Source: Bacteroidota bacterium (GTDB lineage: Bacteria; Bacteroidota; Bacteroidia; Bacteroidales; FEN-979). From it: 64,000 nucleotides of DNA. The DNA lies in the NCBI GenBank assembly GCA_037134895.1, contig JBAXLI010000003.1, forward strand, positions 43,937 through 107,936. Direction: 5' to 3'. Positions 38,440-57,072 of the stretch are shown here, in pieces; positions within the stretch are counted from its first letter, which is position 1, and every line of letters starts with the position of its first letter. The translations under genes were made by a program, and so were the position numbers. Under the pieces are notes generated by a model, which worked only from the letters and a program-made list of their open reading frames with translations, made no database searches and was not told the origin of the DNA.

Positions 38440-39216
38440 ATGAAAGTTGTTATTCTTGCAGGCGGACTTGGCACCAGGTTAAGCGAAGAAACTGATCTGA
38501 AGCCGAAACCCATGGTAGAGATTGGTGGAAAACCCATTCTGTGGCATATTATGAAGATATATTCCCATTACGGGTTTAATGATTTTGTAATCTGCTGCGG
38601 ATATAAAGGTTACCTTATTAAAAAATATTTTGCGGATTACTTCCTGAACCAGTCCGACGTTACAATTGATCTCAGTTCGAACAAAATGGAGTTGCTAAAC
38701 CTCCAGACCGAGCCCTGGAAAGTGACCCTTGCCGATACAGGCCTGACAACCATGACCGGGGGGCGTATCAAGCGCATTCAGAAGTATCTCGATAGCAAAA
38801 CATTCATGCTTACATATGGTGATGGCCTCAGCAATGTGAACATTTCCAACTTGCTCGACTTTCATCGAAAAAGCGGAAAACTGGCCACCATTCTCGCCGT
38901 TCAGACGGCTGGAAGATTTGGTGCAATTCAATTGGATGATCATAGCCACCAGGTCCGCAGTTTCAAGGAGAAACCCACAGGAGACGGTGCTTTTATTAAT
39001 GGGGGATTCTTTGTTCTGGAACCGAAAATATTCGACTACATCCAGGGTGGTGACGAAACAACATGGGAAAGAGACCCGCTTGAACACATTGCCCAGGATA
39101 ACCAATTGATAGCCTTTACACATATAGGTTTCTGGAGGCCTATGGATACCTTGCGTGATAAATTCGAACTTGAACAGATGTGGAATTCTGAAAAATGTGA
39201 TTGGAAAGTATGGTAA
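38440..39216 (+). CDS. rfbF: Glucose-1-phosphate cytidylyltransferase (DdhA)
   Basis: MKVVILAGGLGTRLSEET..KPKPMVEIGG, TMTGGRIKR, GFWRPMDTLRD. Confidence 0.95.
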   Translation: MKVVILAGGLGTRLSEETDLKPKPMVEIGGKPILWHIMKIYSHYGFNDFVICCGYKGYLIKKYFADYFLNQSDVTIDLSSNKMELLNLQTEPWKVTLADTGLTTMTGGRIKRIQKYLDSKTFMLTYGDGLSNVNISNLLDFHRKSGKLATILAVQTAGRFGAIQLDDHSHQVRSFKEKPTGDGAFINGGFFVLEPKIFDYIQGGDETTWERDPLEHIAQDNQLIAFTHIGFWRPMDTLRDKFELEQMWNSEKCDWKVW

Positions 39217-39217
39217 T

Positions 39218-40300: not shown

Positions 40301-41646
40301 TTACCATTTTAGGCGGAGGAATATCAGGTTTAAGTACTTCTTATCATCTGGGCCATGAAAACTGTATAATTTTTGAAAAGAAAAACTATATCGGCGGACA
40401 TGTTTACTCTTATACCAAAGATGGTTTCACCTGGGACGAAGGTCCTCATGTTTCATTTACGAAGCATGAGTATGTAAAGAATCTATTTCAGAAGAGTGTG
40501 AACTCCGAATTCCTTCAGTTTCCGGTAACAATAACCAATTATTATCATGGAAGCTGGATTCCCCACCCTGCCCAGAGCAACCTTTATGCTATTCCACAAC
40601 CCTTAAGAGATCAAGTTCTCGCAGATTTTCTCAGTTCACGCAACAATGCAAAAACCAATCCGGCTGATTTTGAAGAATGGCTCGTTATGGCATTCGGTAA
40701 AACGTTTGCCGAGAATTTTCCCAGAGCCTACACCAAAAAATACTGGACTGATGATCCGAAAAACCTGACCACCGACTGGGTTGGTGACCGGGTATTCTAT
40801 CCTGCCATCGATGATGTGAAAAACGGATATCTGGGTCCACTGAAAAGACAAACCCATTATATAACCGAAGTCAGATATCCCAAAGCAGGAGGATACTTGT
40901 CATTTTCATATGAACTGACCAAGGGAGCAAATATCCATCTCAATAAAAAAGTCACGCTGCTTTCATTTCGGGAGAAAAAAATTCATTTTTCCGACGGGAC
41001 CATCCATGATTTTGACGAGCTGATCTCTACGATTCCCCTGCCTGAACTGATCGAAATCAGCGACGCCCCGGAGGATATTAAAACCACCGCCCGTTCACTC
41101 AACTATTCTTCCCTCTTGTTGGTCAATGTGGTTGCAAATCATATGAGCGTTCAGCCTTACCATTGGCTGTATGTTTATGATCTGGAAAAGTATTCAACCA
41201 GGATCACCTGCACCGAAAGTCTTTCTCCCTTGAATGGCAAGCCGCATCAGACAGGAATCCAGGTAGAAATATATTTTTCTAATTCAAAACAAAAGCTTGA
41301 ATTGGACGAGGTGATCGCCGGGAAAGTTTGCGAGGAACTGGTGGAAATGGGACTCATCCGGGAAAAACACAATATTCTGAATATGCATACCAGATGGGCT
41401 CCCTGGGCCAATGTAATCTTTGATCATTCTCGAAGAAAAAAACAGGAAATGATTTTCAACTGGCTTGAGCAATTTGGACTTTCACGTGAGCAGGATGATC
41501 TGGATCCAATGACCAATTGGGTATCAAAAGCAGATGAACAAGTGAAACTCGGAAAACTGGTATTGGCAGGAAGATTTGCCCAATGGAAATATTTCTGGAG
41601 CGATGATTGTGTGTTAAGAGGAAAAACAATTGCAGAGAAAAAGTAA
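40297..41646 (+). CDS. Flavoprotein, NDP-sugar pyranose-furanose mutase-like (UGM/WbyH-like)
   Basis: ILGGGISGLS, WDEGPHVSF, YTKKYWT, YPKAGG, C-terminal GRFAQWKYFWSD; ATGA overlap with rfbG. Confidence 0.7.
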   Translation: MITILGGGISGLSTSYHLGHENCIIFEKKNYIGGHVYSYTKDGFTWDEGPHVSFTKHEYVKNLFQKSVNSEFLQFPVTITNYYHGSWIPHPAQSNLYAIPQPLRDQVLADFLSSRNNAKTNPADFEEWLVMAFGKTFAENFPRAYTKKYWTDDPKNLTTDWVGDRVFYPAIDDVKNGYLGPLKRQTHYITEVRYPKAGGYLSFSYELTKGANIHLNKKVTLLSFREKKIHFSDGTIHDFDELISTIPLPELIEISDAPEDIKTTARSLNYSSLLLVNVVANHMSVQPYHWLYVYDLEKYSTRITCTESLSPLNGKPHQTGIQVEIYFSNSKQKLELDEVIAGKVCEELVEMGLIREKHNILNMHTRWAPWANVIFDHSRRKKQEMIFNWLEQFGLSREQDDLDPMTNWVSKADEQVKLGKLVLAGRFAQWKYFWSDDCVLRGKTIAEKK

Positions 41647-41656
41647 AACGCTGAAT

Positions 41657-42553
41657 ATGGATCATGAAATTCTGAAACATAAAACCATCCTCATCACCGG
41701 GGCCACCGGGTTCATAGGCAGAAACCTTTTAAAAAAACTGTATGGCCTTGGCTTAAAGGTAATTGCGGTTGTATACAAAGATGATACGACTTCCCTTCCT
41801 ATTGAAGAAATTCATTATGATGGCAGTTATCAGAGCCTCGAAACAGCAGCCACAGATAGCAACATCGATTTTGTTATCCATCTAGCAACCCAGTTTCTTT
41901 CAAACCACAAACCAGAACAGATATCTGCCCTAATTGATGCGAATGTTAAATTCGGAAACCATCTTTTAGAATTTACAAGACAGAAAAAAATTCCTTTTTT
42001 CATAAATACATCAACATATTATGAGTACTACCAGCACGACGGGTACAATCCTCAGAATCTTTATGCTGCGACAAAATATGCGTTCGAAACAATTATGAAA
42101 TATTACGAAGGCGTTACTTCATCCCATTTTGTCACGCTAGAGCTGACCGATACCTACGGGCCGGGTGATCCAAGGCCCAAGTTTATCAATCTCGTGATCG
42201 ATGCCATCCGCAAAAAAGAAATCTTTAAAATGTCACCTGGAGAGCAGGAGATTTGTTATTTATACATTGATGATGCTGTTGATGCATTTATCTTTTGCAT
42301 GTGTTTAATGACAAAAAAAATCATTATCAAAAACAGTCATTTTTCAGTATATGCAGATGAAGTATTCAAGCTAAAAAATTTAGTTCAAATGGTGGCAAAC
42401 CTAATGAATTTTGACCTTGTAACTGAAGCAGGTTTTTATCCTTACAGGGAAAGAGAGATCATGATATTTAAACCAACTTTCTCCAATTTGCCAAACTGGA
42501 AAAGCAAAGTATCAATGAAAGAAGGGCTGAATTTCCTTCTTACAAAACGATAA
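41657..42553 (+). CDS. NAD-dependent extended SDR, probable CDP-4-keto-3,6-dideoxyhexose reductase (Abe/Prt/AscF-like)
   Basis: TGATGFIG, HLAT, YAATK (YxxxK), DTYGPGD, YREREIM; context among ddh genes. Confidence 0.75.
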   Translation: MDHEILKHKTILITGATGFIGRNLLKKLYGLGLKVIAVVYKDDTTSLPIEEIHYDGSYQSLETAATDSNIDFVIHLATQFLSNHKPEQISALIDANVKFGNHLLEFTRQKKIPFFINTSTYYEYYQHDGYNPQNLYAATKYAFETIMKYYEGVTSSHFVTLELTDTYGPGDPRPKFINLVIDAIRKKEIFKMSPGEQEICYLYIDDAVDAFIFCMCLMTKKIIIKNSHFSVYADEVFKLKNLVQMVANLMNFDLVTEAGFYPYREREIMIFKPTFSNLPNWKSKVSMKEGLNFLLTKR

Positions 42554-42727
42554 TCTCCTCGGTCATTTAAAGATTCTGCCTCAATTCTAGATGTTTTTAT
42601 AGAAAAAATTCTTTAGGTAATCAAAATAACCAAGTAATAATCTCGTCCTTATGACTTTACAGAAGATGGAAACAATGCAACTTGGTAAATTATATTAAAT
42701 CGTATTTTTGGATAAAGTTCAAATATA

Positions 42728-42973
42728 ATGGATCAACAAGCTATAATGATTGTTCTAGAGAAGATTTTCGGTGAGGTTATTGATAACAGCAATATTCGAT
42801 TGAACTCAGAAACAGTCGTTTCTGAGTTAGAGGGATGGGATTCTTTTTCACAGATCCGGCTAATCCTTCTTTTAGAAAAATCATTTAACGTTCGATTTAC
42901 GTCTCAGGAGATTCAATCATGGGCTAATGTGGGAGAACTTTGTCTAACAATTCACCTAAAAACCATCTGTTGA
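42728..42973 (+). CDS. Acyl carrier protein
   Basis: GWDSFSQI phosphopantetheine motif, EKSFNVRF, NVGEL; -7 box TATTTTTG at 42703-42710. Confidence 0.85.
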   Translation: MDQQAIMIVLEKIFGEVIDNSNIRLNSETVVSELEGWDSFSQIRLILLLEKSFNVRFTSQEIQSWANVGELCLTIHLKTIC

Positions 42974-44422
42974 ATGTTTTTTAATTCCATTCAGTATATC
43001 CTCTTTCTCCCTATAGTAGTTGTACTATTTTATATTACTCCCTTACGATTCCGTTGGTTACTTCTTCTTTCTACAAGCTACTACTTTTACATGTGCTGGA
43101 TTCCTGAATTAATTATCGTAATTGTTGCTTCCACTCTAGTGAATTATACTTTTGCGATATCAATATCCAAGCAAACCACCCAAAGCAGGAAAAAGCTATT
43201 GTTGATATCAACACTTATACTCAACCTTGGAACGCTGATAGTTTTTAAGTATTTGGGGGTTGTCAGAGAGATCATTCATTCATTATATTCGACGAACAAT
43301 CCAGGTAATTTATCCTCTGCTTTCTTTCTTATTGCTCCAATCGGCATTTCATATTATACCCTTCAATCTTTAAGTTATATTTTGGATGTTTATTATGGGA
43401 AACGTAAAGCGGAGAGGCATCCTGGCATTTTTGCCCTTTATGTTGCCTTTTTCCCCCTTATACTTTCTGGTCCAATTGAGCGCTCAACTCATTTACTACC
43501 ACAGTTTCGCGAAAAAGAACGTATCAAACTTAATTCCACTAATATAGAAGAAGGTATTAAACTTATTATCTTCGGGTATTTCCTTAAGCTAGTTATTGCC
43601 GACCGCACCTCTATTTATGTAGATGCTGTCTTTGGCAACATCCAAAGACATGGTGGAATCACCTTTATTGTGACAATAATACTTTACAGCTTTCAGATCT
43701 ATTCCGATTTTGCAGGATATTCTGCTATCGCTATTGGTTCTGCACGGTTGATGGGATTTGATGTGTATCAGAACTTCAATCGCCCTTATTTCTCCTCTAC
43801 GATTCGCGAATTCTGGACCCGTTGGCATATTTCTCTTTCCATATGGTTGAGGGATTATCTTTTTAACCCCTTAACGTTCTATTTTATGAGAGTTTTTCGG
43901 AAAGAATGCTATTTGAAAATTATCAGCCCAGAACTTCTTACATATGCTTTTTCAGCCTTCATTACATTTGTTATTTGTGGATTATGGCATGGTGCCAGGT
44001 TTACGTTCCTGATATGGGGAAGCCTTCACGGGATTTACCTGATAATAGAAAGAGCAACTAAACGTAAATCAGATAAAACGATACTGAATATAATCATTAC
44101 TTATATAATGATTTTATTTACTTGGATATTTTTCCGTTCTGATAATGTTAATGATGCATTCCTTATAATCCGAACAATTTTCACACACCCTGGTAGCCTT
44201 TATATCCCATTCGATAATGATGTAGTCGCACCGGTATATGCCATTCTTGGGATCCTCATTCTTGTAGTGATGGAGGTGAAAAAAGAATTCTTTAATCAAA
44301 AGTTCTCACTTACAAATAACAAGAATGAATATGTGAGAATGATTAGTTTCGGATTGATGATTTTCTTAATTCTTTACCTAGGGGTTTTTGATGCTAGCCA
44401 GTTCATGTATTTCAAATTCTGA
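42974..44422 (+). CDS. MBOAT O-acyltransferase (AlgI/DltB/PatA-like)
   Basis: PIGISYYTLQ, FFPLILSGPIER, QIYSDFAGYS, NFNRPY, FWTRWHISLS, GLWHGA. Confidence 0.93.
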   Translation: MFFNSIQYILFLPIVVVLFYITPLRFRWLLLLSTSYYFYMCWIPELIIVIVASTLVNYTFAISISKQTTQSRKKLLLISTLILNLGTLIVFKYLGVVREIIHSLYSTNNPGNLSSAFFLIAPIGISYYTLQSLSYILDVYYGKRKAERHPGIFALYVAFFPLILSGPIERSTHLLPQFREKERIKLNSTNIEEGIKLIIFGYFLKLVIADRTSIYVDAVFGNIQRHGGITFIVTIILYSFQIYSDFAGYSAIAIGSARLMGFDVYQNFNRPYFSSTIREFWTRWHISLSIWLRDYLFNPLTFYFMRVFRKECYLKIISPELLTYAFSAFITFVICGLWHGARFTFLIWGSLHGIYLIIERATKRKSDKTILNIIITYIMILFTWIFFRSDNVNDAFLIIRTIFTHPGSLYIPFDNDVVAPVYAILGILILVVMEVKKEFFNQKFSLTNNKNEYVRMISFGLMIFLILYLGVFDASQFMYFKF

Positions 44423-44425
44423 CTT

Positions 44426-45373
44426 ATGATTAATGGGCAATTTATGTCGATGATAACGAAAGGGATAAAGTTTATTATTATTCTTTTTTTGATTGACATG
44501 ACCCTCGGGACAACAGCCAGGTTTATATTTTTTACTCAAAAATCCGGAAAATTTTACCGGATCAGTTATTTATTTAATAAAGCAGATGGAGATGTTTTTA
44601 TTTTTGGAAGCAGCAGATCAAGCCATCATTACAATCCCGGGATCTTAGATAAATGTCTCGCGATAAATTCATTTAACGTAGGAGCTCAGGGCCAACAAAT
44701 TCTTTACCAGTCGACCATACAGAAAATTCTTTTGAAAAATCGTAAGCCAAAATTACTTATCTTAGACATCAACCCAGATTGGTTGTACAAATCTCAGGAT
44801 GCTTATGATAATCTTCGTGAACTCAGGCCCTTCTGGTTTAAATTTCCCGAGGTAATCGGCCCAACGCTTACTTTACAGTCGAAACTGCAAAAAATATGGT
44901 TATTCTCAAGGTCGTATCAGTATAATTCAACCATCGTCCATATTCTCTATTATATGATTAAACCACAAAAAGACCAGAAGGGCTATGTACCACTTTTGCA
45001 TAAAATGAAACCTGATGAATATAGCTTTCAAAGGGGAATTGATTCCATTAAATTTATACACCCCAAAGAACTCGAATTTGATCCAATTTTTGAAAATAGC
45101 TTCAGGAATTTTCTAACGTTAGCAATGTCAAGAAATATTGCAGTTATTATGGTTTGCTCCCCTGATATATTGTATAAAGAAATTGAATATAATCAATCCA
45201 AGGAAAGAATATTGCAGATTAGCAAATCTTATGGGATACCATTCCTGGATTTTTCCGAAGATCCTTATTTCCTTACCCATCATGAATTCTTCAATGACAC
45301 ACATCATCTTAATGACTTAGGGGCCAAAATATTCAGCCGCAGGCTATGCGAAAGACTAAGACCTTATTTGTAA
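44426..45373 (+). CDS. SGNH-like periplasmic acyl-transfer partner (AlgJ/DltD-like)
   Basis: N-terminal TM, FGSSRS Ser block, FNVG, C-terminal FNDTHHLN (DxxH). Confidence 0.7.
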   Translation: MINGQFMSMITKGIKFIIILFLIDMTLGTTARFIFFTQKSGKFYRISYLFNKADGDVFIFGSSRSSHHYNPGILDKCLAINSFNVGAQGQQILYQSTIQKILLKNRKPKLLILDINPDWLYKSQDAYDNLRELRPFWFKFPEVIGPTLTLQSKLQKIWLFSRSYQYNSTIVHILYYMIKPQKDQKGYVPLLHKMKPDEYSFQRGIDSIKFIHPKELEFDPIFENSFRNFLTLAMSRNIAVIMVCSPDILYKEIEYNQSKERILQISKSYGIPFLDFSEDPYFLTHHEFFNDTHHLNDLGAKIFSRRLCERLRPYL

Positions 45374-45778: not shown

Positions 45779-45810
45779 GTTGTAATTGTTGATTCACAAT
45801 ATTAAATTTG
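45779..45810 (+). promoter_or_regulatory. Candidate sigma-A promoter for the large T9SS gene
   Basis: GTTG (45779-45782), 20-nt spacer, TAAATTTG (45803-45810), upstream of ATG 45831. Confidence 0.45.
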
Positions 45811-45830
45811 AATTCCAAATCAATAGTATT

Positions 45831-48800
45831 ATGAAAAGAAGCCTTTTCTTTTGTGTCTTCCTGGCTTTATTTTCATTATGTAATAGCAGCAAAGCTCAAG
45901 GCGTTGATAGTCTTCAGAACATTCATGTAATTGTCACCTTTGCCTCCCCTCCTGCGGTCTACAATGTCGCAAAGGCTCCGTTGCGTTTCAACAAACTCTT
46001 TGCATTCAGTATGGGCGAAGATGACGGGACAAAGGATATATACACGAATGCGTTTCCCTTATTCAACGGGGGGGTGATTAACGGAGTAGGCTATCCCGGA
46101 CTCAAATACACCGATGGATGCGGAAATGATCAGAATTTCAAATTGAGCGCGGCCATCTTTTCATTGTACGCCCAGGGTTCTATCCTGGTCGATATGCACG
46201 ATCCTTCAGGCCAATATGCCTCTACCATTGTAACATGGCCCCAACTGATTGAACTATACGAGCAGAACTGGAGCATACAGAACCACGGACTGACTTCAGG
46301 CAATGTTGGAACCATGGGCTACCAGGTCGCAAGGAATGGAAGTTATGTGAAACTGATGATGCAGCCGGCCACTGCCGGTGGCCCTGACTTAAAAACTTTT
46401 GTCAATCCAAATGGAATTGAAGCATACTCTTCCTTTGCATGGGCCCAGGGATATACCATCTGCTTCAGGGAAGGATATGCTTTTGGCAATCCAGGATTTA
46501 ACGTCTCCGGCCCATTTCCACACCAGAATATAGGCATGCACCGTGCAAATGGATATGAAGCGGTGAGCCTGAGCGCTATTGCCGATAATCTTGCAAATAC
46601 CAGCGTCGGTGGCGCCCACCAATGGGGAGCAGCTTTTACACATTCAATCACGAACAGCAGTTTCGGATACGCGTTTTCGACATTCCAGAACCAGATGACC
46701 TATATTGCCAATACCTATGGTAAGAACGGTCTCGACAATATCCTGATGACAACCGAAGAAGAGGTCATCGATTACCTTATGGTACGCGATAGCATCAATG
46801 TGAATACCCAGTTGAACGGAAACGTACTGACGATCTCATTTACCGGAAACCTCACCAACAAATACCGCTTTTACAATTCAACCCTTCTTATTTCGGCCAA
46901 CCAGAATATTACATCCATTGCAACCCAGGGAGTGCAGTCAAACTCGTATAACGGAATAGGATCGACAAATGGAATGGTGAACATAAGCTGGAACGGCCAT
47001 TATGTTGTACCTCCCGAAGTCAATGCCGAAGCCTGGGTAAGTAAGACCGAAACCTCCCAGAGCCAGGAGGATGCAAATGTGGCCATGGATTATATTCTGA
47101 TGGTACCCCCAGGACCTGTGCAGAAAGCTTTCAGGATCAGACTTTGCCTCGTACCCGGTCTTACTCTGCCTTCAGATTTCTGCACATACCATAACGCCCC
47201 TGTTACTTCCATTCCTGATAAGGGCGGCTGCCCCGGACATCCCCTTGTAATTCCCCTCGAAGTTGACAGTTTTCTGAATGTCAAATCATTCAATTTGAGA
47301 CTTGAATATAGCCCGGCTGTCATGGCCTTCGTTTCAGGAGCGGCAGGTAAACCTTCAATCCTGAGCGGGATACTGATCACCGACCAGGCTGTTGGAGGGA
47401 TATCGCCCCTGAGAAAGATCCTTATCTCCTGGACAGGCGCAGCCGCACAATCGCTTAACATTCACGACACCCTCGCCCTGCTTACCTTTAACTATTTATC
47501 GGGGAATACCCCACTCACATTCAATACCGCATCAAACGGAGGAGCCGACTGCAGATATAGCGATGACGGAGGAAACCCGATGTATCAGTATCCCATTGGA
47601 GATTATTTTATTGGCTCACAAGTAACCAACTCGAAGCTGGCTGCCCCCGCGACAATAAGCGGGCCATCGCCCCTTTGCGCCGGAACGCCGAATAACACCT
47701 ATATTATTTCGCCGGTTACCGGAGCAACATCATATGCCTGGAATTTTCCTGTCGGATTTACTGTAAACAATGGCAGCGCCAATGATACAGTAGTTGCAAC
47801 TGCAGGTCCAAATGCCGTCACAGGCAACATCACCGTAAGAGCAGTAAACATTTGCATCGACAATCCGCTTTCACCGCCTTTTACAGTTACAGTGAAACCC
47901 AGGCCGGTACCTACTCTGAATGGTGTGGACTCAGCCTGCATGATGGACCAGGGCGTGGTTTACACAACCGAGGCAGGCATGACTGATTATACTTGGTCTG
48001 TTTCATATGGAGGTACCATTACTTCAGGTATGAATACAAATACTGTCGCTGTGACCTGGACGGCCGCTGGTCAACAAACTATCAGTGTGATATACCGGGG
48101 AACCAACGGCTGCCTGGCCCCTCTCCCCACAATCAAGAATGTAACGGTTAATCCTCTTCCGATTCCTGCTATCAGCGGAGCCGATACTCTCTGTCGTAAT
48201 GCCTTATCAACATATACCGCACCATCGGGAATGCAGTCCTACCAATGGCTTTTATCCCCTTCGGGTGTGATATTATCCGGAACGTCCTCATCCGCGGTAA
48301 CAGTAAAATGGAATAATCCCGGTCAGCAATGGATCAGCCTGAACTGTACAAACTCTTCCGGTTGCCAGCCCCCTTCGCCCACAGTTTATAATGTCTTCGT
48401 CCGCCCGGTCGCGCAACCGGTTATTTCCGGTCCCGACAGTTTATGCGCCGAAGTTTCAGACATTGTATATACTACCCAGCCCGGGATGAATGCATATTCC
48501 TGGTCGGTCACAACGGGTGGAACAATCACTTCAGGCTCGGGAACGGCTTCAGCTACTGTACACTGGACAAGCCCGGGAATGCAGCAAATACATGTAAATT
48601 ATATCCTGCCCGGCGGATGTCAATCTCCTGCCCCCTTCATTCTCCCGGTCAGGGTGTTTGCCAGGCCTCAGCCCCATATTATGGGACCTGACAGTTTGTG
48701 CAATGGTTCCACAGGAACTGTTTACAATACCGAAAGCGGAATGAATAATTACCAGTGGACAATCACCCCTGGTGGAACAATTACATCCGGCTCAAGCCTT

Positions 48801-50933
48801 AATACCATCACTGTCGACTGGAATGCCGCCGGCAACCAGCAACTTTCGGTCACCTATTCAAATGAAAAAGGCTGCCAGGCCTTGCAACCTGTGCTGCAGT
48901 CGGTCAGAATTCATCCTCTGCCTGTTCCTTGGATCAGCGGTCTGTCAAACTCCTGTGTAAACTCTTCCAATCAGATTTACCATACGCAAAGCGGTAAGTC
49001 AAACTATTTCTGGACGATAAGCAGCGGGGGTGTGATCGATTACGGACAAAACACCGACTCGGTGAGGGTAAACTGGGTTTCGACCGGATTGCAGCACCTC
49101 ACTGTAAACTATCTTGATTCGAATAACTGCATGGCTGTTCAGCCTGCGTCATTTGCCGTAAATGTTCATCCCGTCCCGTTGCCCACGATCAGCGGATCAT
49201 CTTCGGTATGCCAGGGGGCGGCAGGGATTACCTACACCACCCAAAGCGGGATGGGTAATTACCTCTGGACCATCTCCCCGGGGGGAATCATACAGTCAGG
49301 GACCGGCACGCAAGCAATTACAGTTAGATGGGATTCTGCCGGTTCACAAACTGTCACTGTGAACTATACAAACTCATCAGGCTGCTTTGCCCTGGCGGCT
49401 ACCGAGAAAAATGTCATGGTACATCCTTTGCCCGTTCCAACAATCAACGGGCCCGACAGTCTTTGTATGAATGAGACCGGAACATATACTACCGAAACCG
49501 GAATGGGAAATTACCAATGGGTGATCTCCCCCGGGGGTAGTATAGTAACGGGGATGGGAACCAATACAATTAACGTTACCTGGACATCTTCAGGCCCTCG
49601 TACGATTTCGGTTAGTTATCTCAGTGTGAATAACTGCCTCCCCTATACTCCCACTGTGTTTCATGTAAATGTGTTCCCCCTTCCTGTTCCGCAGATCATT
49701 GGAAATACCACAGTATGTGCTAACTCTTCGAATGTGCCTTACAAAACAGAAAGCGGAATGAGTAATTATTTGTGGACTCTCACTGGGTCAGGTGCGATTA
49801 CATCAGGACAAAACACCGACTCCATTACAACCGTCTGGGGGAACCCCGGGACTTCAACACTTACGGTGACCTACGCCTCCACCAAGGGATGTAATCCGGT
49901 CACCCCTGCCATTGTTACAGTTATACCCCTTCTGAGGCCGGTACCTATGATCAACGGGAATAATTCTGTCTGCATTAATTCAGGAACCAAAGATTATTCT
50001 ACCCAAACTGGTCAGTTGGATTATATTTGGGTAATCTCAGCAGGAGATTCAATTCTTTCGGGCGGCAGCACATCCTCTGTGACCGTTCAATGGAATAATT
50101 CCGGTTCCCGGTGGATATCAGCAACATACACCTCTCCCTCCGGTTGCCCCGCTTTATCACCTGATACGATGATTGTTAGTGTTAATCCCCTGCCTCTGCC
50201 CGCTTCATCCGTTTCAGGTCCTTTCTTGCTTTGCGTTCCGGCGTTCTGGCAGGAATATTCTGTATCTCCTATCACCAACGCATCGGGTTATTTCTGGACT
50301 TTACCTGCCGGTTCTATTTTCCAGGGCAGTCCCAACAGCAATGTCATTCATGTGGGGTATCTGGAGAATGTTCAATCAGACAGTGTTACAGTTTACGGGA
50401 CAAATGCCTGCGGTAACGGAACGCCTTCCAGCCTGTTTGTGACTCTGAATCCAATCCCACCCCAGCCAACAATAACTCCAGGACAGAACGATACAATCAA
50501 ATCCAGCTCACCGTATGGCAACCAATGGTATCTCAATGACCAGCTGTTGCCGGGTGACACCCTTGACCATCTCTATGTTTCATTGAGCGGGGACTATTAT
50601 ATAATAGTGCGGATGAATGGCTGTGTTTCTGACACTTCCGAAGTGTATCATGGTATTGCGGTCGGCACACTGGCCATCAAAGGCTTAAGCATCGAGGTTC
50701 ATCCGAATCCGACAAACGGCAGGCTTATCCTGGACTTCAGTAGTCCGGTAGAAAATTTTTATACGGTGATTTTTTTTAATGAACTCGGGATGACGATTTG
50801 CCGGTCTGAAAAGCTTATTCCTGCCGGAAAATCAAGCTGGTTCATCGATCTGGGCAATATTTCTCCGGGCCTCGTGATTCTGACAATACAGTCCGCCGAA
50901 GGAATCATCAGAAAAAGAATAATCATAATTTAG
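45831..50933 (+). CDS. Large T9SS-secreted protein: polysaccharide-deacetylase-like domain, cohesin-like domain, 11 Cys-pair Ig/PKD-like repeats, type A CTD
   Basis: Signal peptide from ATG 45831. FSMGEDDG/WSIQNHG/FTH NodB-like motifs; IPLEVDSFLNVKSFNLRLEYSP cohesin-like; repeated P.I.G...C....Y.T..GM..Y.W....GG.I.SG; C-terminal VHPNPTNG...KRIIII. Confidence 0.85.
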   Translation: MKRSLFFCVFLALFSLCNSSKAQGVDSLQNIHVIVTFASPPAVYNVAKAPLRFNKLFAFSMGEDDGTKDIYTNAFPLFNGGVINGVGYPGLKYTDGCGNDQNFKLSAAIFSLYAQGSILVDMHDPSGQYASTIVTWPQLIELYEQNWSIQNHGLTSGNVGTMGYQVARNGSYVKLMMQPATAGGPDLKTFVNPNGIEAYSSFAWAQGYTICFREGYAFGNPGFNVSGPFPHQNIGMHRANGYEAVSLSAIADNLANTSVGGAHQWGAAFTHSITNSSFGYAFSTFQNQMTYIANTYGKNGLDNILMTTEEEVIDYLMVRDSINVNTQLNGNVLTISFTGNLTNKYRFYNSTLLISANQNITSIATQGVQSNSYNGIGSTNGMVNISWNGHYVVPPEVNAEAWVSKTETSQSQEDANVAMDYILMVPPGPVQKAFRIRLCLVPGLTLPSDFCTYHNAPVTSIPDKGGCPGHPLVIPLEVDSFLNVKSFNLRLEYSPAVMAFVSGAAGKPSILSGILITDQAVGGISPLRKILISWTGAAAQSLNIHDTLALLTFNYLSGNTPLTFNTASNGGADCRYSDDGGNPMYQYPIGDYFIGSQVTNSKLAAPATISGPSPLCAGTPNNTYIISPVTGATSYAWNFPVGFTVNNGSANDTVVATAGPNAVTGNITVRAVNICIDNPLSPPFTVTVKPRPVPTLNGVDSACMMDQGVVYTTEAGMTDYTWSVSYGGTITSGMNTNTVAVTWTAAGQQTISVIYRGTNGCLAPLPTIKNVTVNPLPIPAISGADTLCRNALSTYTAPSGMQSYQWLLSPSGVILSGTSSSAVTVKWNNPGQQWISLNCTNSSGCQPPSPTVYNVFVRPVAQPVISGPDSLCAEVSDIVYTTQPGMNAYSWSVTTGGTITSGSGTASATVHWTSPGMQQIHVNYILPGGCQSPAPFILPVRVFARPQPHIMGPDSLCNGSTGTVYNTESGMNNYQWTITPGGTITSGSSLNTITVDWNAAGNQQLSVTYSNEKGCQALQPVLQSVRIHPLPVPWISGLSNSCVNSSNQIYHTQSGKSNYFWTISSGGVIDYGQNTDSVRVNWVSTGLQHLTVNYLDSNNCMAVQPASFAVNVHPVPLPTISGSSSVCQGAAGITYTTQSGMGNYLWTISPGGIIQSGTGTQAITVRWDSAGSQTVTVNYTNSSGCFALAATEKNVMVHPLPVPTINGPDSLCMNETGTYTTETGMGNYQWVISPGGSIVTGMGTNTINVTWTSSGPRTISVSYLSVNNCLPYTPTVFHVNVFPLPVPQIIGNTTVCANSSNVPYKTESGMSNYLWTLTGSGAITSGQNTDSITTVWGNPGTSTLTVTYASTKGCNPVTPAIVTVIPLLRPVPMINGNNSVCINSGTKDYSTQTGQLDYIWVISAGDSILSGGSTSSVTVQWNNSGSRWISATYTSPSGCPALSPDTMIVSVNPLPLPASSVSGPFLLCVPAFWQEYSVSPITNASGYFWTLPAGSIFQGSPNSNVIHVGYLENVQSDSVTVYGTNACGNGTPSSLFVTLNPIPPQPTITPGQNDTIKSSSPYGNQWYLNDQLLPGDTLDHLYVSLSGDYYIIVRMNGCVSDTSEVYHGIAVGTLAIKGLSIEVHPNPTNGRLILDFSSPVENFYTVIFFNELGMTICRSEKLIPAGKSSWFIDLGNISPGLVILTIQSAEGIIRKRIIII
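47640..50450 (+). repeat. Intragenic array of 11 ~86-aa Ig/PKD-like repeats (9 of one subtype flanked by 2 of another)
   Basis: Counted in the translation; each unit has two Cys and conserved Y.W and V.W; nucleotide sequence is diverged. Boundaries approximate. Confidence 0.8.
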
Positions 50934-51041
50934 TGGAATTCTTTTTTTTAATACTTAAATTTGGCAATCATCTGACCAAACCCTGTAAAGCGAAATTTTC
51001 AAACCACTGATAAAAATCTAACGAAAAGTCTGATAAAAGCT

Positions 51042-52667
51042 ATGGAACAAACACCTGTAAATTCATTTCTGGCAGGCGATTTTTACATCGCTGAAGCGCC
51101 GGGCGCCGATAAAAACAATTCAGGATCACTGCCTGTGCTGATATTACAAACACTTGAAAATGAAGAAGAATTGCTTGTGCTGCCCGGACAAGCGCCAGGG
51201 CATACACCGGCCGAAAAATATATGATTGAGATCCGGTCTACTGATATTGAAGACGGGTCCTTTTCGGAGAGATTGTTGTTCCCTGTTTCTAAACAGATGC
51301 GGATCAGGGTCGCTTCACTCAACAGGAAGATCGGCAGGATAAACAGGAAAAAAATTGATGAAATGCAGCGTACGGTCGTGCATTTCCATACGGATGGATT
51401 TTACAGGCAGAAGTTCTCTCCCCAGGAATTCATTCCCGGAAAATCAAAAGTTAACTATGCAGGAAGGGTTTTTAATCAGAATGAGCTGATCAATGCGGTG
51501 GATGCTTCACTTGACTTCTGGTTGACCGAAGGGAGGTTTTCGGAACAGTTTGCCGAAAAGATCGCCGATTTTCTTGGTGTTGAGAATGTGTTGCTTACAA
51601 ACTCCGGTTCATCTGCAAACTTATTGGCTTTTTCTGCCCTTACGTCAGAAAAACTGGGAGAAAAAAGGTTGAAACCAGGTGATGAGGTTATTTCTGTGGC
51701 TGCAGGTTTTCCTGCTACTGTAACTCCTATTATCCAATATGGTCTTATCCCCGTATTTGTCGACGTAAGCATTCCTACCTACAACATTGATGTTGAGTCA
51801 ATGAGGAAGGCCATTACTCCAAAGACAAGGTGCATTTTCATTGCTCACACCCTGGGGAATCCGTTTGATATTGACACGGTGATGGAAGTGGCGAGGGAAC
51901 ATGACCTTTGGGTTATCGAGGACAACTGCGATGCCTTTGGAAGCAAATACGACGGAAAGTATACCGGTACTTTCGGACATCTTTCAACAATCTCATTTTA
52001 TCCTGCACATCATATTACCACCGGAGAAGGGGGCGCCATCATCACAAATGATGCATTGCTGGCCCAGCTCGTGAGGGCATTCCGTGACTGGGGAAGAGAT
52101 TGTTATTGTTCGGGAGGTGAAAATAACACCTGCGGCAAACGATTCACACAAACTTTTGGCAACCTTCCATTAGGGTATGACCATAAATATGTTTATTCAG
52201 AGATTGGGTACAACCTTAAAATGACGGATATACAGGCAGCTATCGGTTCTGCCCAAATTGATAAACTACCTTCCTTCTGCGAAAAACGTAAAAACAATTT
52301 CAAACGTCTTCATGGGATCTTCGGCGCCTATCCTGATTGTTTCATTCTGCCGGAGGCTTCCCCCAAATCAGATCCCGCCTGGTTCAGTTTTATTGTCACC
52401 TTAAAACAGGATTGTCCCTTCAAACGCGACGATCTCAGCAAGTTTCTGAATATGAATCTGATAGAAACCAGGAACCTCTTTGCAGGCAATATGATCAAAC
52501 AACCCGGTTTCATGAACCGGAATTTCAGGGTAGCCGATACCCTGGCAAATACGGATTATATCCTGAACAATACGTTTTTCCTTGGAACCTATCCCGGCCT
52601 GACCGAAAGCATGATGAACCATATCGAAAACACCCTAAAGCTTTTCATCTCCCAAAGAGAAAAATAA
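51042..52667 (+). CDS. rfbH: CDP-4-keto-6-deoxyglucose 3-dehydrase E1 (DdhC) with ~115-aa N-terminal extra domain
   Basis: NSGSSANL, AHTLGNPF, EDNCDA, SFYPAHHITTGEGG (His at the PMP site), RDWGRDCYC..GENNTCG, GYDHKY; -7 box TAAATTTG at 50956-50963. Confidence 0.93.
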   Translation: MEQTPVNSFLAGDFYIAEAPGADKNNSGSLPVLILQTLENEEELLVLPGQAPGHTPAEKYMIEIRSTDIEDGSFSERLLFPVSKQMRIRVASLNRKIGRINRKKIDEMQRTVVHFHTDGFYRQKFSPQEFIPGKSKVNYAGRVFNQNELINAVDASLDFWLTEGRFSEQFAEKIADFLGVENVLLTNSGSSANLLAFSALTSEKLGEKRLKPGDEVISVAAGFPATVTPIIQYGLIPVFVDVSIPTYNIDVESMRKAITPKTRCIFIAHTLGNPFDIDTVMEVAREHDLWVIEDNCDAFGSKYDGKYTGTFGHLSTISFYPAHHITTGEGGAIITNDALLAQLVRAFRDWGRDCYCSGGENNTCGKRFTQTFGNLPLGYDHKYVYSEIGYNLKMTDIQAAIGSAQIDKLPSFCEKRKNNFKRLHGIFGAYPDCFILPEASPKSDPAWFSFIVTLKQDCPFKRDDLSKFLNMNLIETRNLFAGNMIKQPGFMNRNFRVADTLANTDYILNNTFFLGTYPGLTESMMNHIENTLKLFISQREK

Positions 52668-53357
52668 ATGGCATTAGTTAAAAAGTACCCCTCTCTGGTC
52701 ACCGGGTTTGTCAACAAAGGCGAAAACCTTTATGCCGTTGAGTTTAAATCGGAATGCGGAGTGTACAAATATTCACCCGGACAATTCCTGCATCTTGCCT
52801 TGGATGAATATGACCCCAGTGCGCAATGGCCTGAATCCCGTTGTTTTAGCATGCAATCGGCTCCAAGCGACGAAACCATTAAAATCACATTTTCGGTTAA
52901 AGGGGTTTTCACGAACCGTATGAAGAATGAATTATTTACCGGCAAGAAAGTCACCCTGAAACTACCGTTCGGCAACTTGTTTGAGCAGAAACATAGTAAA
53001 ACAAACACTGTATTTATTGCCGGAGGAACAGGCCTCACCCCTTTTCTCTCCCTTTTTACAAACACCACCTTTGGCAATTATATAAATCCTGTTCTTTATG
53101 CCGGATTTCGCAACCGAGCACTGAATATTTACAATGATGAACTCGAATCGGCAAAGATCATCAACCCCTCATTCAGACCCATGATACAATATGAAGATGA
53201 AGCAGGGATGCTCGACATTAAAATAATTCTGGCTGAAAACCCTGAAAACCCTGCCTTTTTCATCTCGGGACCGCCTCTGATGATTAAGTTTTTTAAAACT
53301 TATCTACTGGATCAGGGAGCGAATGAATCGAATGTGTTGAACGATAACTGGGAATAA
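52668..53357 (+). CDS. FNR-family FAD/NAD(P)H oxidoreductase, probable E3 (DdhD-like) reductase lacking a ferredoxin domain
   Basis: PGQFLHL, RCFSMQS (RxYS-like), AGGTGLTPF, SGPPLMI; directly abuts rfbH. Confidence 0.75.
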   Translation: MALVKKYPSLVTGFVNKGENLYAVEFKSECGVYKYSPGQFLHLALDEYDPSAQWPESRCFSMQSAPSDETIKITFSVKGVFTNRMKNELFTGKKVTLKLPFGNLFEQKHSKTNTVFIAGGTGLTPFLSLFTNTTFGNYINPVLYAGFRNRALNIYNDELESAKIINPSFRPMIQYEDEAGMLDIKIILAENPENPAFFISGPPLMIKFFKTYLLDQGANESNVLNDNWE

Positions 53358-53358
53358 T

Positions 53359-53895
53359 ATGAAAATTGAAGAAACAACGATCGAAGGCTTAAAACTTATC
53401 CGCCTCAACAGGTTTGAAGATATACGCGGAAGCTTTGTCAAACCGTTCAATGCTGAATTCTTTGAATCAAATTCGTTGGAAACAAACCTGAGGGAATGCT
53501 ATTTCTCCCTCTCCCATTCGAATGTGATCAGGGGAATGCATTTTCAGCTGCCACCATTTGAGCATACCAAACTTGTGTTTGTGAACAACGGATCAATTCT
53601 GGATGTGGTCTTAGACATCCGCAAAGATTCAAAAACATTTGGTAAATATTTCTCTGTCCAAATAACGGAAGATGACCCTATCTTAGTGTATATTCCAATA
53701 GGTTGTGCGCACGGTTTTTTGAGCCTCGAAAATTCCACTATTGTATCATATATGCAAACTACGGTGTATAAAAAGGATTGCGATGTAGGCATACATTATG
53801 ATTCGTTCGGTATGGACTGGAAGGTTAGAAATCCTATAATTTCTGACCGGGATAAGTCGTTTGTAAATTTTACTGATTTTATTTCGCCATTTTAA
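53359..53895 (+). CDS. dTDP-4-dehydrorhamnose 3,5-epimerase-family (RmlC/AscE-like) protein
   Basis: FEDIRGSF, RGMHFQ, DVVLDIRKDSKTFG, YIPIGCAHGF, IISDRD. Confidence 0.88.
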   Translation: MKIEETTIEGLKLIRLNRFEDIRGSFVKPFNAEFFESNSLETNLRECYFSLSHSNVIRGMHFQLPPFEHTKLVFVNNGSILDVVLDIRKDSKTFGKYFSVQITEDDPILVYIPIGCAHGFLSLENSTIVSYMQTTVYKKDCDVGIHYDSFGMDWKVRNPIISDRDKSFVNFTDFISPF

Positions 53896-54870
53896 ACTAC
53901 TCTATATATCAAGAACCGCGATATAGTGATTTTTTCCCTGAGCCGGCATGATGAGCAGGGAGGATTAAACTGTTTCAGCATTGCAAAGGAGTTTGCAAAA
54001 AACAACAGGGTGATCTTTATCGATCATCCATATACTATTAAAGATTTTGTTCTGAATGATATCAAAGGAGATGTAAGATGGAGATTAAAACATTTTATCC
54101 CTTTTCGCTGCGGCATTTCCAAATACAGAGGAGACGAAGCCAGTTTATATATTCTGTCACTCCCTCCTGTCATACCTATTAATTACCTTGAACCAGGTGG
54201 GCTTTACAATGCTCTGCAAGGAATAAATACAACGATCATCGGAAAGCGGATAGCGGGGGCTATAAAAAAACTTTCTTTAAAAAATATAATTTACATCAAT
54301 GCATTCAACTTTTATTACCCCGACCTTAAAAAGTATATTAAGCCTTCACTCTATATTTATTACTGCATTGATATAATGATCAAACCATATTCGCTCAGGC
54401 ATGGTCCCAGGCTAGAAAATCAATTATTAAAAGAAGTAGATGTTGTAATCACAACCGCTCCGAAACTTCAGCAAGCAAAAAAGGTAATTAATCCAAATAG
54501 TTACCTGGTTACAAATGCTGCTGATTTTAATCTTTCAAGCAAAGCCCTTTCTCCATCAACATCAGTCGCTTCTGAACTTAAAGAGTTTCCAAAGCCCATC
54601 ATTGGGTATTTGGGGAGTATAGAACGCCGAATTGATTATATCCTTATTGGATCTGTTGCAAGAAAAAATAAGGAATGGACATTTGTTTTGGTAGGCCCTC
54701 TTGAGTGCAAGTACATTCCTGATGAACTTTTTACAATCCCAAACATTATTTTTATTAAACAACAACCCTATCATGTCAAATTGCACGAGAATTGACCCAG
54801 GGATTTGCAACAAAATTGACCCACCCACAAAAGTAAGATTAACTTGCTTCGGTGACCAAAACCGGAGCTT

Positions 54871-56310
54871 ATGTACAGAGTGGGTATGTATAACACGATC
54901 AAAACACATTTAGAACTTGGACACTCCATACGGAGTACGTCTAAATTATTGGCTATCAGTCGGAACACGGTTCGAACGATTGCCCGACAATTAGAAACAG
55001 GACAAGAAGTTCCAAAGAATCTAACGCGCAAGAAAAAACTCCAGGATTATCAATCTGAGATTGTTACGATGATGAATAAAGGAAAATCATCGGTTTTAAT
55101 CCATGAACACCTGGTGGATCGATATCAATTGGCAGTGGATTATACGACGGTCTCCCGATTTGTTACTGAGATGAAAGGAACAGAAGTATTTGTTCCGGTG
55201 CTAACACCGCCTGGGCAGGAAGCCCAGGTTGATTTTGGATATATCGGTCGATTCATGAAAGACGGAAAGAGAGTCAAAGTCTGGGCGTTCTGCATGGTTT
55301 TAAGTTATAGCCGGTATAGTTTTTACTGCCTGGTGACCAACCAAAGCGTTGAAAGTTTTATTCGTTGTCATTGGCTGGCCTTTGAATATTTTTGCGGTGT
55401 GACCCTGGTTGTTCGCCTTGATAACCTTAAAGCAGGTGTTATAACACCCGACTTTTTTGAACCGGTTTACCAGGAAGAATATGCCCGGTTTTTGGATCAT
55501 TATAGCAGCCATCCTATCGCCTGCCGACCTCACACTCCTCAACATAAGGGTAAAGTAGAACGGGGTATCGGTTATTTGAAAGAGAATTTTGTTAAACGCT
55601 ATATCGACCATGATCTTGATTATCATGCGATGGAACAAAAGCTTGCAGTATGGCTTGAGAGTGTTTGTAATGCACGAAAGCATGGGACCACACGAAAGGT
55701 CCCAGCCGAAGTGTTTCAACAGGAAGAACGATCGGTATTACAATCTTTGCCTGCATTGCGCTATGAGTATCCTGTGATTGAACAACGAAAAGTCGATTCG
55801 TACGGGCATGTTCACTATGGGTATAACTTTTACTCCGTACCGGATTATTTATCCGGAGAGCAGCTCACCGTCAAAGTCACCGGGAACATTCTTCGGGTGT
55901 ACCAGGGACAGCTTGAAATTACCTGCCATGCCGTGGTCCATGGCCAGGGAATCTATGTTACCAAAAAGGAACACCAGCCTTCCTATAAAACCAAGAAAGA
56001 TCTTCATTGGTATGAAGAGAAGGCGACTGAAATGGGGCATGATGTAACCGCATTTATGGAGCTAGCCCGGCAGTATCGTCCATTGCATTGGTATGATTAC
56101 ATGAAAGGGGTGATCAGTCTGAGCAAAGTATACTCTCATCAGGAAATCAACCAAGCTTGTAAACGGGCTGTAACGTATAACAACATCAGTTATCAGACGG
56201 TAAAAAATATCCTCGATAAGAAACTGCATGTTGAAGATCAAGAGGTTTTATCCCCTGTGGCCTTTGGTGGTTGGGGACATGAGTTGTCCATGTATGATCA
56301 AATCCTCTAG
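54871..56310 (+). CDS. istA: IS21-family transposase IstA
   Basis: N-terminal HTH (SIRSTSKLLAISRNTVR), PGQEAQVDFG, DNLKAGV, KGKVERG (DDE), YSVP. Confidence 0.95.
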   Translation: MYRVGMYNTIKTHLELGHSIRSTSKLLAISRNTVRTIARQLETGQEVPKNLTRKKKLQDYQSEIVTMMNKGKSSVLIHEHLVDRYQLAVDYTTVSRFVTEMKGTEVFVPVLTPPGQEAQVDFGYIGRFMKDGKRVKVWAFCMVLSYSRYSFYCLVTNQSVESFIRCHWLAFEYFCGVTLVVRLDNLKAGVITPDFFEPVYQEEYARFLDHYSSHPIACRPHTPQHKGKVERGIGYLKENFVKRYIDHDLDYHAMEQKLAVWLESVCNARKHGTTRKVPAEVFQQEERSVLQSLPALRYEYPVIEQRKVDSYGHVHYGYNFYSVPDYLSGEQLTVKVTGNILRVYQGQLEITCHAVVHGQGIYVTKKEHQPSYKTKKDLHWYEEKATEMGHDVTAFMELARQYRPLHWYDYMKGVISLSKVYSHQEINQACKRAVTYNNISYQTVKNILDKKLHVEDQEVLSPVAFGGWGHELSMYDQIL

Positions 56311-56313
56311 ACC

Positions 56314-57072
56314 ATGGAAGCAGTAAGAGAAAAACTGAAGATCTTACGTCTGAGTGGTGCCAGTGCATCGCTTGAGAGCCGTAACCGGTATGCTCTGGAT
56401 AACAAGTGTAGCTATCTGGAGTTTTTGGAGATGCTCCTGGAAGATGAATGTGTTCGCCGTAAGAGCAATGGGTTCGAACGAAAATTGAAAGCATCCCGCC
56501 TGGATCCATCAAAAACATTGGAAGCGTTCGACTTCCGTTTTCAACCCGATATCGATAAACGACAGATCCAGGAACTGGCTTCCTGTAGGTTTATTAACGA
56601 TAGACAAAACGTTATTTTTATGGGTAAGCCCGGTGTAGGAAAAACTCATCTGGCCAATGCTATTGGACTCAGCGCCCTGCATCAAGGCCAAGAAGTAATG
56701 CTGGTTCATGCCAATACCCTAATTGATGATTTATATCGCTACAAGGCTGATGGAAGATACCAGGCAGCACTGAGAAAATATAAACGGCTGGATCTTCTGA
56801 TCATCGATGAGCTTGGATTTAAACGAATCCCACGCAATGGCCTGGATGACTTCTTTGATGTCATCCGTAGCCGTTATGAAACCGGTTCTATCATCATTAC
56901 CACCAACCGGACTTTTGAAGACTGGGGGAGTTTGTTTGAAGACCCTGTCATGGCTTCTGCAATTATCGACAGACTCATTCATCATGCTCAGATCATAAAA
57001 ATCGCCGGAAACAGTTACCGGATAAAAAAAAGAAGCGAACTAACAGAAAGTGAAACAACAAGATCAAAATAG
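56314..57072 (+). CDS. istB: IS21-family AAA+ helper ATPase IstB
   Basis: GKPGVGKTHLA Walker A, LLIIDELG Walker B, TTNR, AIIDRLIHH, GNSYR. Confidence 0.96.
   Translation: MEAVREKLKILRLSGASASLESRNRYALDNKCSYLEFLEMLLEDECVRRKSNGFERKLKASRLDPSKTLEAFDFRFQPDIDKRQIQELASCRFINDRQNVIFMGKPGVGKTHLANAIGLSALHQGQEVMLVHANTLIDDLYRYKADGRYQAALRKYKRLDLLIIDELGFKRIPRNGLDDFFDVIRSRYETGSIIITTNRTFEDWGSLFEDPVMASAIIDRLIHHAQIIKIAGNSYRIKKRSELTESETTRSK

Follow-up and report, generated by a model that had tools for sequence, protein, structure and literature searches.

A probably disarmed MazF-type relic at the N-terminus of an RfbH 3-dehydrase in a Bacteroidota genome, and the fusion family to which it belongs

The toxins of type II toxin-antitoxin systems are normally small free proteins, and toxin genes that are left orphaned and degenerate after the loss of their antitoxin form a general pattern. 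The present work concerns a gene in which a fold of the MazF/PemK toxin type is covalently joined to a sugar-modifying enzyme. The gene encodes a protein of 541 amino acids (aa) and occupies positions 51042..52667 of a stretch of 64,000 nucleotides from a Bacteroidota bacterium (contig JBAXLI010000003.1 of assembly GCA_037134895.1), the whole of which is called the window below. The analysis leads, with reasonably good confidence, to the conclusion that this gene encodes a working RfbH (CDP-4-keto-6-deoxyglucose 3-dehydrase, E1) whose first ~100 residues are a disarmed relic of MazF type.

Two described systems supply the standards against which the gene can be measured. The enzyme E1 is described, in the excerpted part of PMC8987622, as a dimeric enzyme which carries pyridoxamine 5'-phosphate and a [2Fe-2S] cluster, has a catalytic His, and requires the reductase E3. 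For the toxin, the excerpted part of PMC7354611 gives Arg25 and Thr48 as the key catalytic residues of Bacillus MazF, whose single mutants lose most of the RNase activity, and notes that Ser or Lys stands in at key positions in some active MazFs. The features of the window gene to which the comparison refers are as follows.

51042..52667, plus strand: whole open reading frame (ORF), 541 aa, probable degenerate MazF-like domain followed by the RfbH/DdhC (E1) 3-dehydrase
51042..51344, plus strand: residues 1-101, degenerate MazF/PemK-type beta-barrel (AlphaFold2 (AF2) model, Foldseek, VIA-align, hhalign)
51129..51131, plus strand: codon 30, CTG (Leu), where MazF has its catalytic Arg (Arg25 in the Bacillus protein)
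51189..51194, plus strand: codons 50-51, Gln-Ala, at the site of the MazF Thr-Ser (Thr48 of Bacillus MazF)
51279..51299, plus strand: F80-P-V-S-K-Q-M86, a motif of the fusion family's own, fully kept in the window copy
51345..51416, plus strand: residues 102-125, one continuous helix which is both the MazF C-terminal helix and the RfbH N-terminal helix (AF2 model)
51360..52655, plus strand: residues 107-538, RfbH/E1 catalytic part, apparently intact (NF011936, E 1.3e-202)
51363..51365, plus strand: internal ATG (Met108), from which translation might alternatively begin and yield an RfbH of ordinary length

The window protein is a full member of RfbH. Its match to the RfbH equivalog NF011936 covers model positions 7-438 of 440 and scores 673.3 bits against a cut-off of 423, PF01041 spans residues 147-532, and the protein is the sole RfbH above the NF011936 cut-off in the genome. 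Cys296, Cys354, Cys356 and Cys364, the putative four Cys of the [2Fe-2S] motif, and the pair His323/324, which would include the catalytic His, are all present, and the family alignment described below shows them to be invariant or nearly so; a single one of the 133 enzyme-part columns conserved in at least 90% of the family is altered. The likeness to the RfbH/DdhC/AscC (E1) enzymes of Salmonella and Yersinia consists in the equivalog match; the four Cys and the His-His pair, and rfbF and rfbG in the window, are also present. The differences are the additional N-terminal residues and an adjoining 229-aa FNR-like reductase in which no ferredoxin-type [2Fe-2S] domain was detected. Because the NF011936 match begins at residue 107, approximately 100-106 extra residues lie ahead of the normal RfbH, much as an earlier note on this DNA had proposed from the letters; all of the peptides quoted in that note are contained in the 541-aa translation.

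That note had also assigned the extension to the MazF/PemK fold, and the assignment holds up under both profile and structural comparison. Residues 1-121 align with PF02452 over its full length at a sub-threshold level (residues 12-113 on model positions 3-106 of 109, E 0.0061), and a profile of the window copy and three relatives, all three of them intact, aligns by hhalign with six canonical PemK sequences over 113 columns with a probability of 99.4% (E 4.6e-21). An AF2 model of residues 1-126, built on the family alignment, reaches a predicted local distance difference test score (pLDDT) of 86.5 and a predicted template modelling score (pTM) of 0.80, with barrel strands at residues 13-18, 29-37, 43-48, 61-64, 69-72, 78-81, 86-89 and 93-100. 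Foldseek places this model at E<=1e-3 with 77 chains of the Protein Data Bank (PDB), the listed top rows of which are all MazF (among them 6l29_B, E 4.5e-6, and 5hkc_B, TM 0.73/0.82). In VIA-align the match to 5hkc_B (MazF-mt3) has Z 14.2 and a root-mean-square deviation of 2.2 over 107 aligned residues, and MazF/PemK-type toxins fill the top 41 rows before CcdB follows at Z 11.7; across the MazF/PemK/Kid toxins (PF02452; PDB 4mdx, 4me7, 5hkc, 1ub4) the same fold is recovered with Z 12-14 over 100-110 residues. MazF structures align as far as model residues 118-121 and the RfbH model begins at residue 107, and it follows that toxin fold and enzyme share one helix.

Searches with the single sequence reach less far. 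A word-based search with residues 1-125 recovered the protein's own cluster alone, and a single-sequence search of the PDB gave no significant match, the best (E 0.48) being to the unrelated TPR1. With phmmer, the true relatives found among 1.84 billion representatives are P0004 (E 2.3e-6), P0006 (E 7.9e-5) and P0007 (E 6.1e-4), at 25-27% identity; all three carry the KPRPVL and G-S/T-S motifs and run on into RfbH, and two of them reach the Pfam cut-off (P0004 with 23.4 bits). Three other phmmer matches, P0002, P0003 and P0005, were rejected as spurious, as they are long repeat proteins aligned over short stretches. Set beside the MazF/PemK toxins, the window copy shows their fold and profile homology, and it lies below their Pfam cut-off and is without their Arg and their Thr/Ser; no antitoxin gene was found for it.

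These relatives belong to a family. A profile search of longer proteins returned 120 clusters at 90% identity, the window's own included, all of which have a DegT/RfbH domain and most of which are 530-570 aa long; the fusions besides the window's thus amount to at least 119 clusters of about 540 aa from several phyla, near-duplicates included. The source names comprise Leptospirillum, Nitrospirae, Rugosibacter aromaticivorans, Methylobacter tundripaludum SV96, Candidatus Methylumidiphilus and Bacteroidia, and record titles place the fusion architecture in the cultured and harmless Methylomonas methanica, Methylobacter tundripaludum and Rugosibacter aromaticivorans as well. PF02452 is matched at E<=0.01 by 43 of the 84 members scanned (best E 2.3e-7), and close relatives of the window copy exceed the Pfam cut-off (L036 with 32.4 bits, P0100 with 25.9 bits). 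Like the MazF/PemK toxins, the fusion family conserves the Arg and the Thr/Ser; unlike them, it has its toxin domain covalently joined, through the shared helix, to a sugar enzyme of 430 aa, and it has motifs of its own (PNSKGD, W56 and FPxSKQ), the last of which was not seen in the six canonical PemK sequences aligned. Free-standing members of this MazF subfamily were sought among 26 length-restricted matches, and no clear one was found among the 11 examined: P0134, P0136, P0139, P0141, P0142, P0143, P0004, P0006 and P0007 appear to be contig-end fragments or frameshifted or deleted fusions, and the weak matches P0147 and P0149 are canonical PemK. Within this set, P0134, P0141, P0142 and P0143 are apparent frameshifted fusion genes, and L057/P0004 (213 aa) is a deletion variant in which an intact MazF-like domain leads straight into the last ~100 residues of RfbH. 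The family N-domain found no match in plasmid or phage collections.

It is against this family that the condition of the window copy can be judged. In the hhalign alignment the Arg that is invariant in canonical PemK is paired with L30 and its invariant Thr with Q50, which agrees with the earlier claim that both catalytic residues are lost. The columns below, in window numbering, are taken from an alignment of the window copy with the 119 other fusion clusters.

Column 28: Lys in 114 of 119; window Gly
Column 30: Arg in all 117 sequences ungapped at this column; window Leu
Column 31: Pro in all 117 sequences ungapped at this column; window Pro
Column 39: Asn in 115 of 119; window Glu
Column 42: Gly in all 117 sequences ungapped at this column; window Glu
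Column 43: Asp in 113 of 119; window Glu
Column 50: Ser or Thr in 116 of 119; window Gln
Column 51: Ser or Thr in 117 of 119; window Ala
Column 56: Trp in 115 of 119; window Pro
Columns 80-85, F-P-x-S-K-Q: F80 in 119, P81 in 116, S83 in 118, K84 in 118 and Q85 in 109 of 119; kept in the window

The window copy is the only aligned sequence without Arg at column 30. The fusion family thus retains the catalytic pair of MazF, with the window copy as the single exception at the Arg, and since nearly all other members keep the catalytic residues, the description of a dead toxin fold applies to the window copy and not to the architecture. The window copy would on this evidence be inactive as a toxin. 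It is very improbable that it remains active through other residues or through an unrecognised neutralising partner: the fold pattern is retained, and Lys or Ser occupies key positions in some MazF toxins (PMC7354611, excerpted part), but Leu and Gln cannot replace a general acid/base Arg and Thr/Ser, single mutations at these positions severely cut RNase activity according to the same excerpts, no homologue of the family's antitoxin-like gene was found in the genome, and no small ORF lies upstream.

The loss extends beyond the catalytic pair and is concentrated in the N-domain. Seven of its 18 family-conserved columns (again at >=90%) are altered in the window copy, against a mean of 0.34 and at most 5 in the other members. 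The 17 closest relatives share 21-29% identity with it in the N-domain and 78-83% in the enzyme part, and in other pairs whose enzymes are 80-90% identical the N-domains average 74.9% identity and never fall below 52.4%. In the comparison with the relative L009, in which synonymous sites are saturated, the N-domain has 44% nucleotide identity, with proportions of nonsynonymous and synonymous differences (pN and pS) of 0.51 and 0.73 and a pN/pS of 0.70, as against 69% nucleotide identity, pN 0.155, pS 0.84 and a pN/pS of 0.18 in the enzyme part. Descent from the family is nevertheless legible, since the protein alignment with L036 is free of gaps, the MEQ-P-NS start is common to those two and MEQ to L009 as well, and the lengths agree (541 as against 540-541 aa). 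Two other origins of the divergence were rejected: a domain swap from a canonical PemK, as the window copy retains the FPVSKQM motif, the start and the length of the fusion family, and a frameshift, as the extension aligns in frame throughout. The window copy accordingly looks like a decaying descendant of the fusion family. Partial erosion is also seen in L049/P0114, P0122 and P0126, in which 5, 4 and 3 of the 18 conserved columns are mismatched and the Arg is retained; at L049 a small ORF that matches weakly is still present upstream.

Decay of this kind has to be reconciled with a reading frame that is still open. When L009 was evolved by substitution alone, in a crude simulation that starts from a modern relative and ignores insertions and deletions, 0.47% of the sequences kept the 106-codon frame open at 56% divergence, and because the frame does stay open in the window, the extension is probably still translated from 51042, or stop codons in it are selected against. 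One alternative, close to the idea of the earlier note, is that the barrel has lost its RNase chemistry and taken on a new role, such as stabilisation of the dimer, contact with the reductase or another partner, or the binding of RNA or a ligand. The rarity of an open frame under unconstrained substitution, the absence of gaps against L036, the full-length alignment to the Pfam pattern, the retention of F80-PVSKQ-M86 and of structural Gly and Pro residues, and a pN/pS below 1 are all in its favour. An open frame is equally expected, however, of the obligatory N-terminus of an enzyme that is needed, close to two fifths of the conserved columns (7/18) are gone, and nothing closer than 27% identity among the 1.84 billion representatives shares the window's variant, for which reason purifying selection on the new N-domain sequence cannot be shown. 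A new function is for these reasons unlikely.

Another alternative is that the extension is no longer made, translation having moved to Met108 (51363) so that 51042-51362 is a decaying leader. The canonical RfbH start region does lie there (model position 7 corresponds to residue 107), Met is rare at this column (4/119 other members), and the sequence upstream of Met108 is A-rich. On the other hand, 106 codons have passed without a stop or frameshift in spite of 56% nucleotide divergence from L009, the start context of the full-length frame is shared with the relatives in the way described above, and an untranslated open frame of 320 nucleotides would be unusual. This account is judged rather improbable, and translation most plausibly begins at 51042; both starts may be in use.

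What the intact family possesses, and what was not found with the window copy, is a second gene. In 16 of 16 genome loci (from Rhodoferax, Crenothrix, Methylobacter, Methylomonas methanica, Gallionellales, Rugosibacter, Macondimonas, Deltaproteobacteria and a Bacteroidia metagenome-assembled genome) an ORF of 71-76 aa ends at or overlaps the start of the fusion gene, and the same is true of 22 of 23 metagenome loci, the 23rd having just 26 upstream bases, which makes 38/38 assessable loci overall. In the loci inspected rfbG precedes the small ORF, and rfbG, small ORF and fusion gene are contiguous. The small protein of other phyla is 28-41% identical to the Bacteroidia copy, with Pro19, Ala51, Glu63, Asp64, Trp67 and Lys69 invariant and an acidic C-terminal tail. 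It has no family in Pfam or PADLOC; the Atlas clusters into which it falls are unnamed, and DUF2281 (0.82) and AF2212-like (0.77) offer no more than weak leads there. Its AF2 model is poor when it is folded alone (pLDDT 64, pTM 0.33). Together with two N-domains of the Bacteroidia relative P0100, it gives a predicted complex with an ipSAE of 0.82, where the best of three controls has 0.00, a score attained in 116 of 157 solved complexes and in 2 of 215 mismatched pairs; 83% or more of the contacts recur between runs, and the partner's pLDDT is 77 or higher. In the predicted complex residues 42-71 of the small protein lie across both N-domains and Trp67 rests on Arg29/Pro30, and the interface on P0100 comprises residues 26-30 (Lys-Pro-Arg-Pro), 47, 49-51 and 84-97. 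Among the residues that the window copy has lost, the Arg, the Ser-Ser pair and several more belong to this interface, as do K84 and residues 86-89, which the copy shares the motif with in part.

The prediction supports, at the level of a model, the binding of the small protein over the Arg loop, and an acidic, Trp-bearing C-terminal tail in this position would be a likeness to MazE-MazF, in which MazE inhibits MazF by a similar arrangement. We infer an RNase toxin in the intact family domain, and in the small protein the partner that neutralises it, on the basis of the fold, the conservation, the gene order, the predicted complex and one co-loss. That co-loss is the window's own. Neither tblastn nor a profile search turned up the antitoxin-like gene in the window (best tblastn match E 0.30, elsewhere in the window) or in the 97%-complete genome, and the loss of the catalytic face in the one lineage without a detected antitoxin-like gene would make sense if an unguarded intact domain did harm. 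The absence of this gene, the altered columns of the N-domain beside a nearly unaltered enzyme, the higher pN/pS of the N-domain, and the fact that the extension is a singleton with no relative closer than 27% identity together leave unsupported the earlier suggestion that the fold is a domesticated module for RNA binding, dimerisation or antitoxin sensing.

A trace of the breakpoint can be discerned at the start codon.

51043..51060, plus strand: remnant in another frame, which reads 'tgg aac aaa cac ctg taa' (W-N-K-H-L-stop)

These correspond to the last five codons and the stop of the relatives' antitoxin-like gene, which ends in ...IWNKYL-stop in L009 and ...IWSKYL-stop in L036. Two stop codons stand in the remnant's frame just upstream (51031-51036), and it is from the fusion gene's ATG onward that the relatives are similar. 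The remnant codons are kept as an automatic consequence of the conserved MEQ start, and still they mark the breakpoint.

A history consistent with these observations can be proposed. The ancestor would have had, after rfbG, a two-gene module in which the small antitoxin-like gene overlapped the MazF-like::RfbH fusion gene. A rearrangement that ended a few bases before the start codon would then have deleted the antitoxin-like gene and, in the same event, put ~10.7 kb of other genes between rfbG and rfbH, and the toxin face would have lost its Arg (Leu30), its Ser/Thr (Gln50, Ala51), Lys28, Asn39, Gly42, Asp43 and Trp56, with the loss of the antitoxin gene and of the toxin residues possible in either order. 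The enzyme part would have stayed strongly constrained throughout, so that the barrel would persist as an inert N-terminal appendage on the shared helix. The window copy resembles orphan degenerate toxins in that its antitoxin-like gene was not found, its catalytic residues are gone and its fold is still recognisable, and it differs from them in that it erodes by substitutions only; decay by stop or frameshift is barred because a still constrained enzyme has the toxin as its N-terminus.

Several points weigh against this account. The PF02452 score of the window extension is 17.2 bits, below the gathering threshold of 23.1, and the extension is not listed in a PF02452 search of the genome at E<=0.1; a four-sequence profile found MazF 4mdx in the PDB with an E value of only 1.1, beside Cas9 with 0.92. 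Because the AF2 model was built on the family alignment, it reflects the fold of the fusion family more than that of the window copy. Eleven of the 18 conserved N-domain columns and the FPVSKQM motif are intact and pN/pS is still below 1, which might reflect a function kept or newly gained and not decay. It was P0100, and not the window protein, whose complex was predicted, and the existence of solved MazE-MazF complexes may inflate its score. The co-loss of antitoxin-like gene and catalytic residues is a single natural case, and the toxin activity of the fusion family is itself a prediction. With these points taken into account, the extension is still best regarded, with confidence well above even but short of strong, as the disarmed and probably still translated relic of a toxin-antitoxin-like module.

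The wider proposal, for which the chances seem roughly even, is that the window copy is a natural knock-out which points to an undescribed type II module consisting of a MazF RNase fused to RfbH and a small antitoxin of a new family. Such a module would sit within rfb operons, between rfbG and rfbH, in genomes of Proteobacteria, Nitrospirota, Desulfobacterota-like bacteria and Bacteroidota. The fusion is conserved in more than 100 protein clusters, with the small partner in all assessable loci but the window's, and in annotation the database names of the family genes are plain RfbH and the upstream small gene has no Pfam family; no description of a MazF/PemK-RfbH fusion was found in the literature, within a coverage that left subscription journals largely outside. 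If the proposal is true, a toxin permanently tethered to a biosynthetic enzyme would be a new wiring of a toxin-antitoxin pair into metabolism and cell-surface synthesis: the tethered toxin could lock cells into keeping or expressing the dideoxy-sugar cluster, and a toxin carried on a dimeric surface-sugar enzyme could tie growth arrest to stress or to phage attack on the surface polysaccharide. The main value of the window copy lies in the family that it reveals and in its use as a natural control, in which a toxin domain fused to a constrained enzyme decays by substitution only; the fusion architecture is directly testable because it is present in cultured bacteria.

A second type of MazF::RfbH fusion occurs in L031 (1260-3105) and L030 (1233-3102), from two genomes (G461 and G699) of one genus in the window's phylum. 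Here a canonical PemK domain (VRPGLVL, YITS; PF02452 46.8 bits) is joined to RfbH, and upstream lie rfbG and a different small ORF of 84-93 aa (MQAVKALYKEGKIQLL...DWEEMFDVK) without a Pfam match. With a second version that has a canonical PemK and a different small ORF, MazF would have become joined to RfbH, or the joint been reshaped, on more than one occasion. Both small ORFs stand upstream of the fusion gene in L010, L011 and L014 (genomes) and in L044, L052, L053 and L056 (metagenomes), with the AF2212-like-looking ORF of the second fusion type first and the 76-aa antitoxin-like ORF after it, an arrangement which suggests an exchange of toxin domain and partner at the RfbH N-terminus, with an orphan left behind.

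The remaining genes of the window locus provide the context of the enzyme.

38440-39216, plus strand: rfbF, glucose-1-phosphate cytidylyltransferase (TIGR02623, E 6.9e-126)
within 39155-40300, plus strand: rfbG, CDP-glucose 4,6-dehydratase (TIGR02622, E 2.4e-151)
40213-45373: amine-oxidase-like flavoprotein, SDR epimerase/reductase, MBOAT acyltransferase and DUF1574 protein, between rfbG and rfbH
45786-50933: protein of 1715 aa with 11 PKD-like domains and a weak, sub-threshold C-terminal sorting domain of the type IX secretion system, between rfbG and the fusion gene
50934..51041, plus strand: spacer of 108 bp after the 1715-aa gene, without an antitoxin-like ORF
52668..53357, plus strand: FNR-like flavin reductase of 229 aa (PF08022), starting one base past the RfbH stop
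53359-53895: RmlC-like epimerase
53926-54795: TuaH-like glycosyltransferase, a short ORF just before the IS21-type element (model positions 152-271 of 384)
54871-56310 and 56314-57072: IS21-type element, transposase (rve and Mu C-terminal domains) and IstB ATPase, respectively

The products of rfbF and rfbG, both above cut-off and 10.7 kb upstream of the fusion gene, carry out the two steps before RfbH, and with RfbH, the reductase and the epimerase they make up a gene set of CDP-3,6-dideoxyhexose type. The reductase is a candidate E3-like electron donor; the NCBIfam flavin-reductase families all lie below their cut-offs. Within the spacer, TAAATTTG at 50956-50963 fits the Bacteroidetes -7 promoter motif; with 50 occurrences of TANNTTTG in the window against 53.8 expected there is no enrichment, which leaves this as a weak lead only. 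Elsewhere in the genome there are two canonical PemK/MazF toxin genes, on contig C16 (7672-7974, 101.8 bits) and on contig C103 (11294-11617, 98.7 bits). The TuaH-like glycosyltransferase beside the IS21-type element is probably interrupted.

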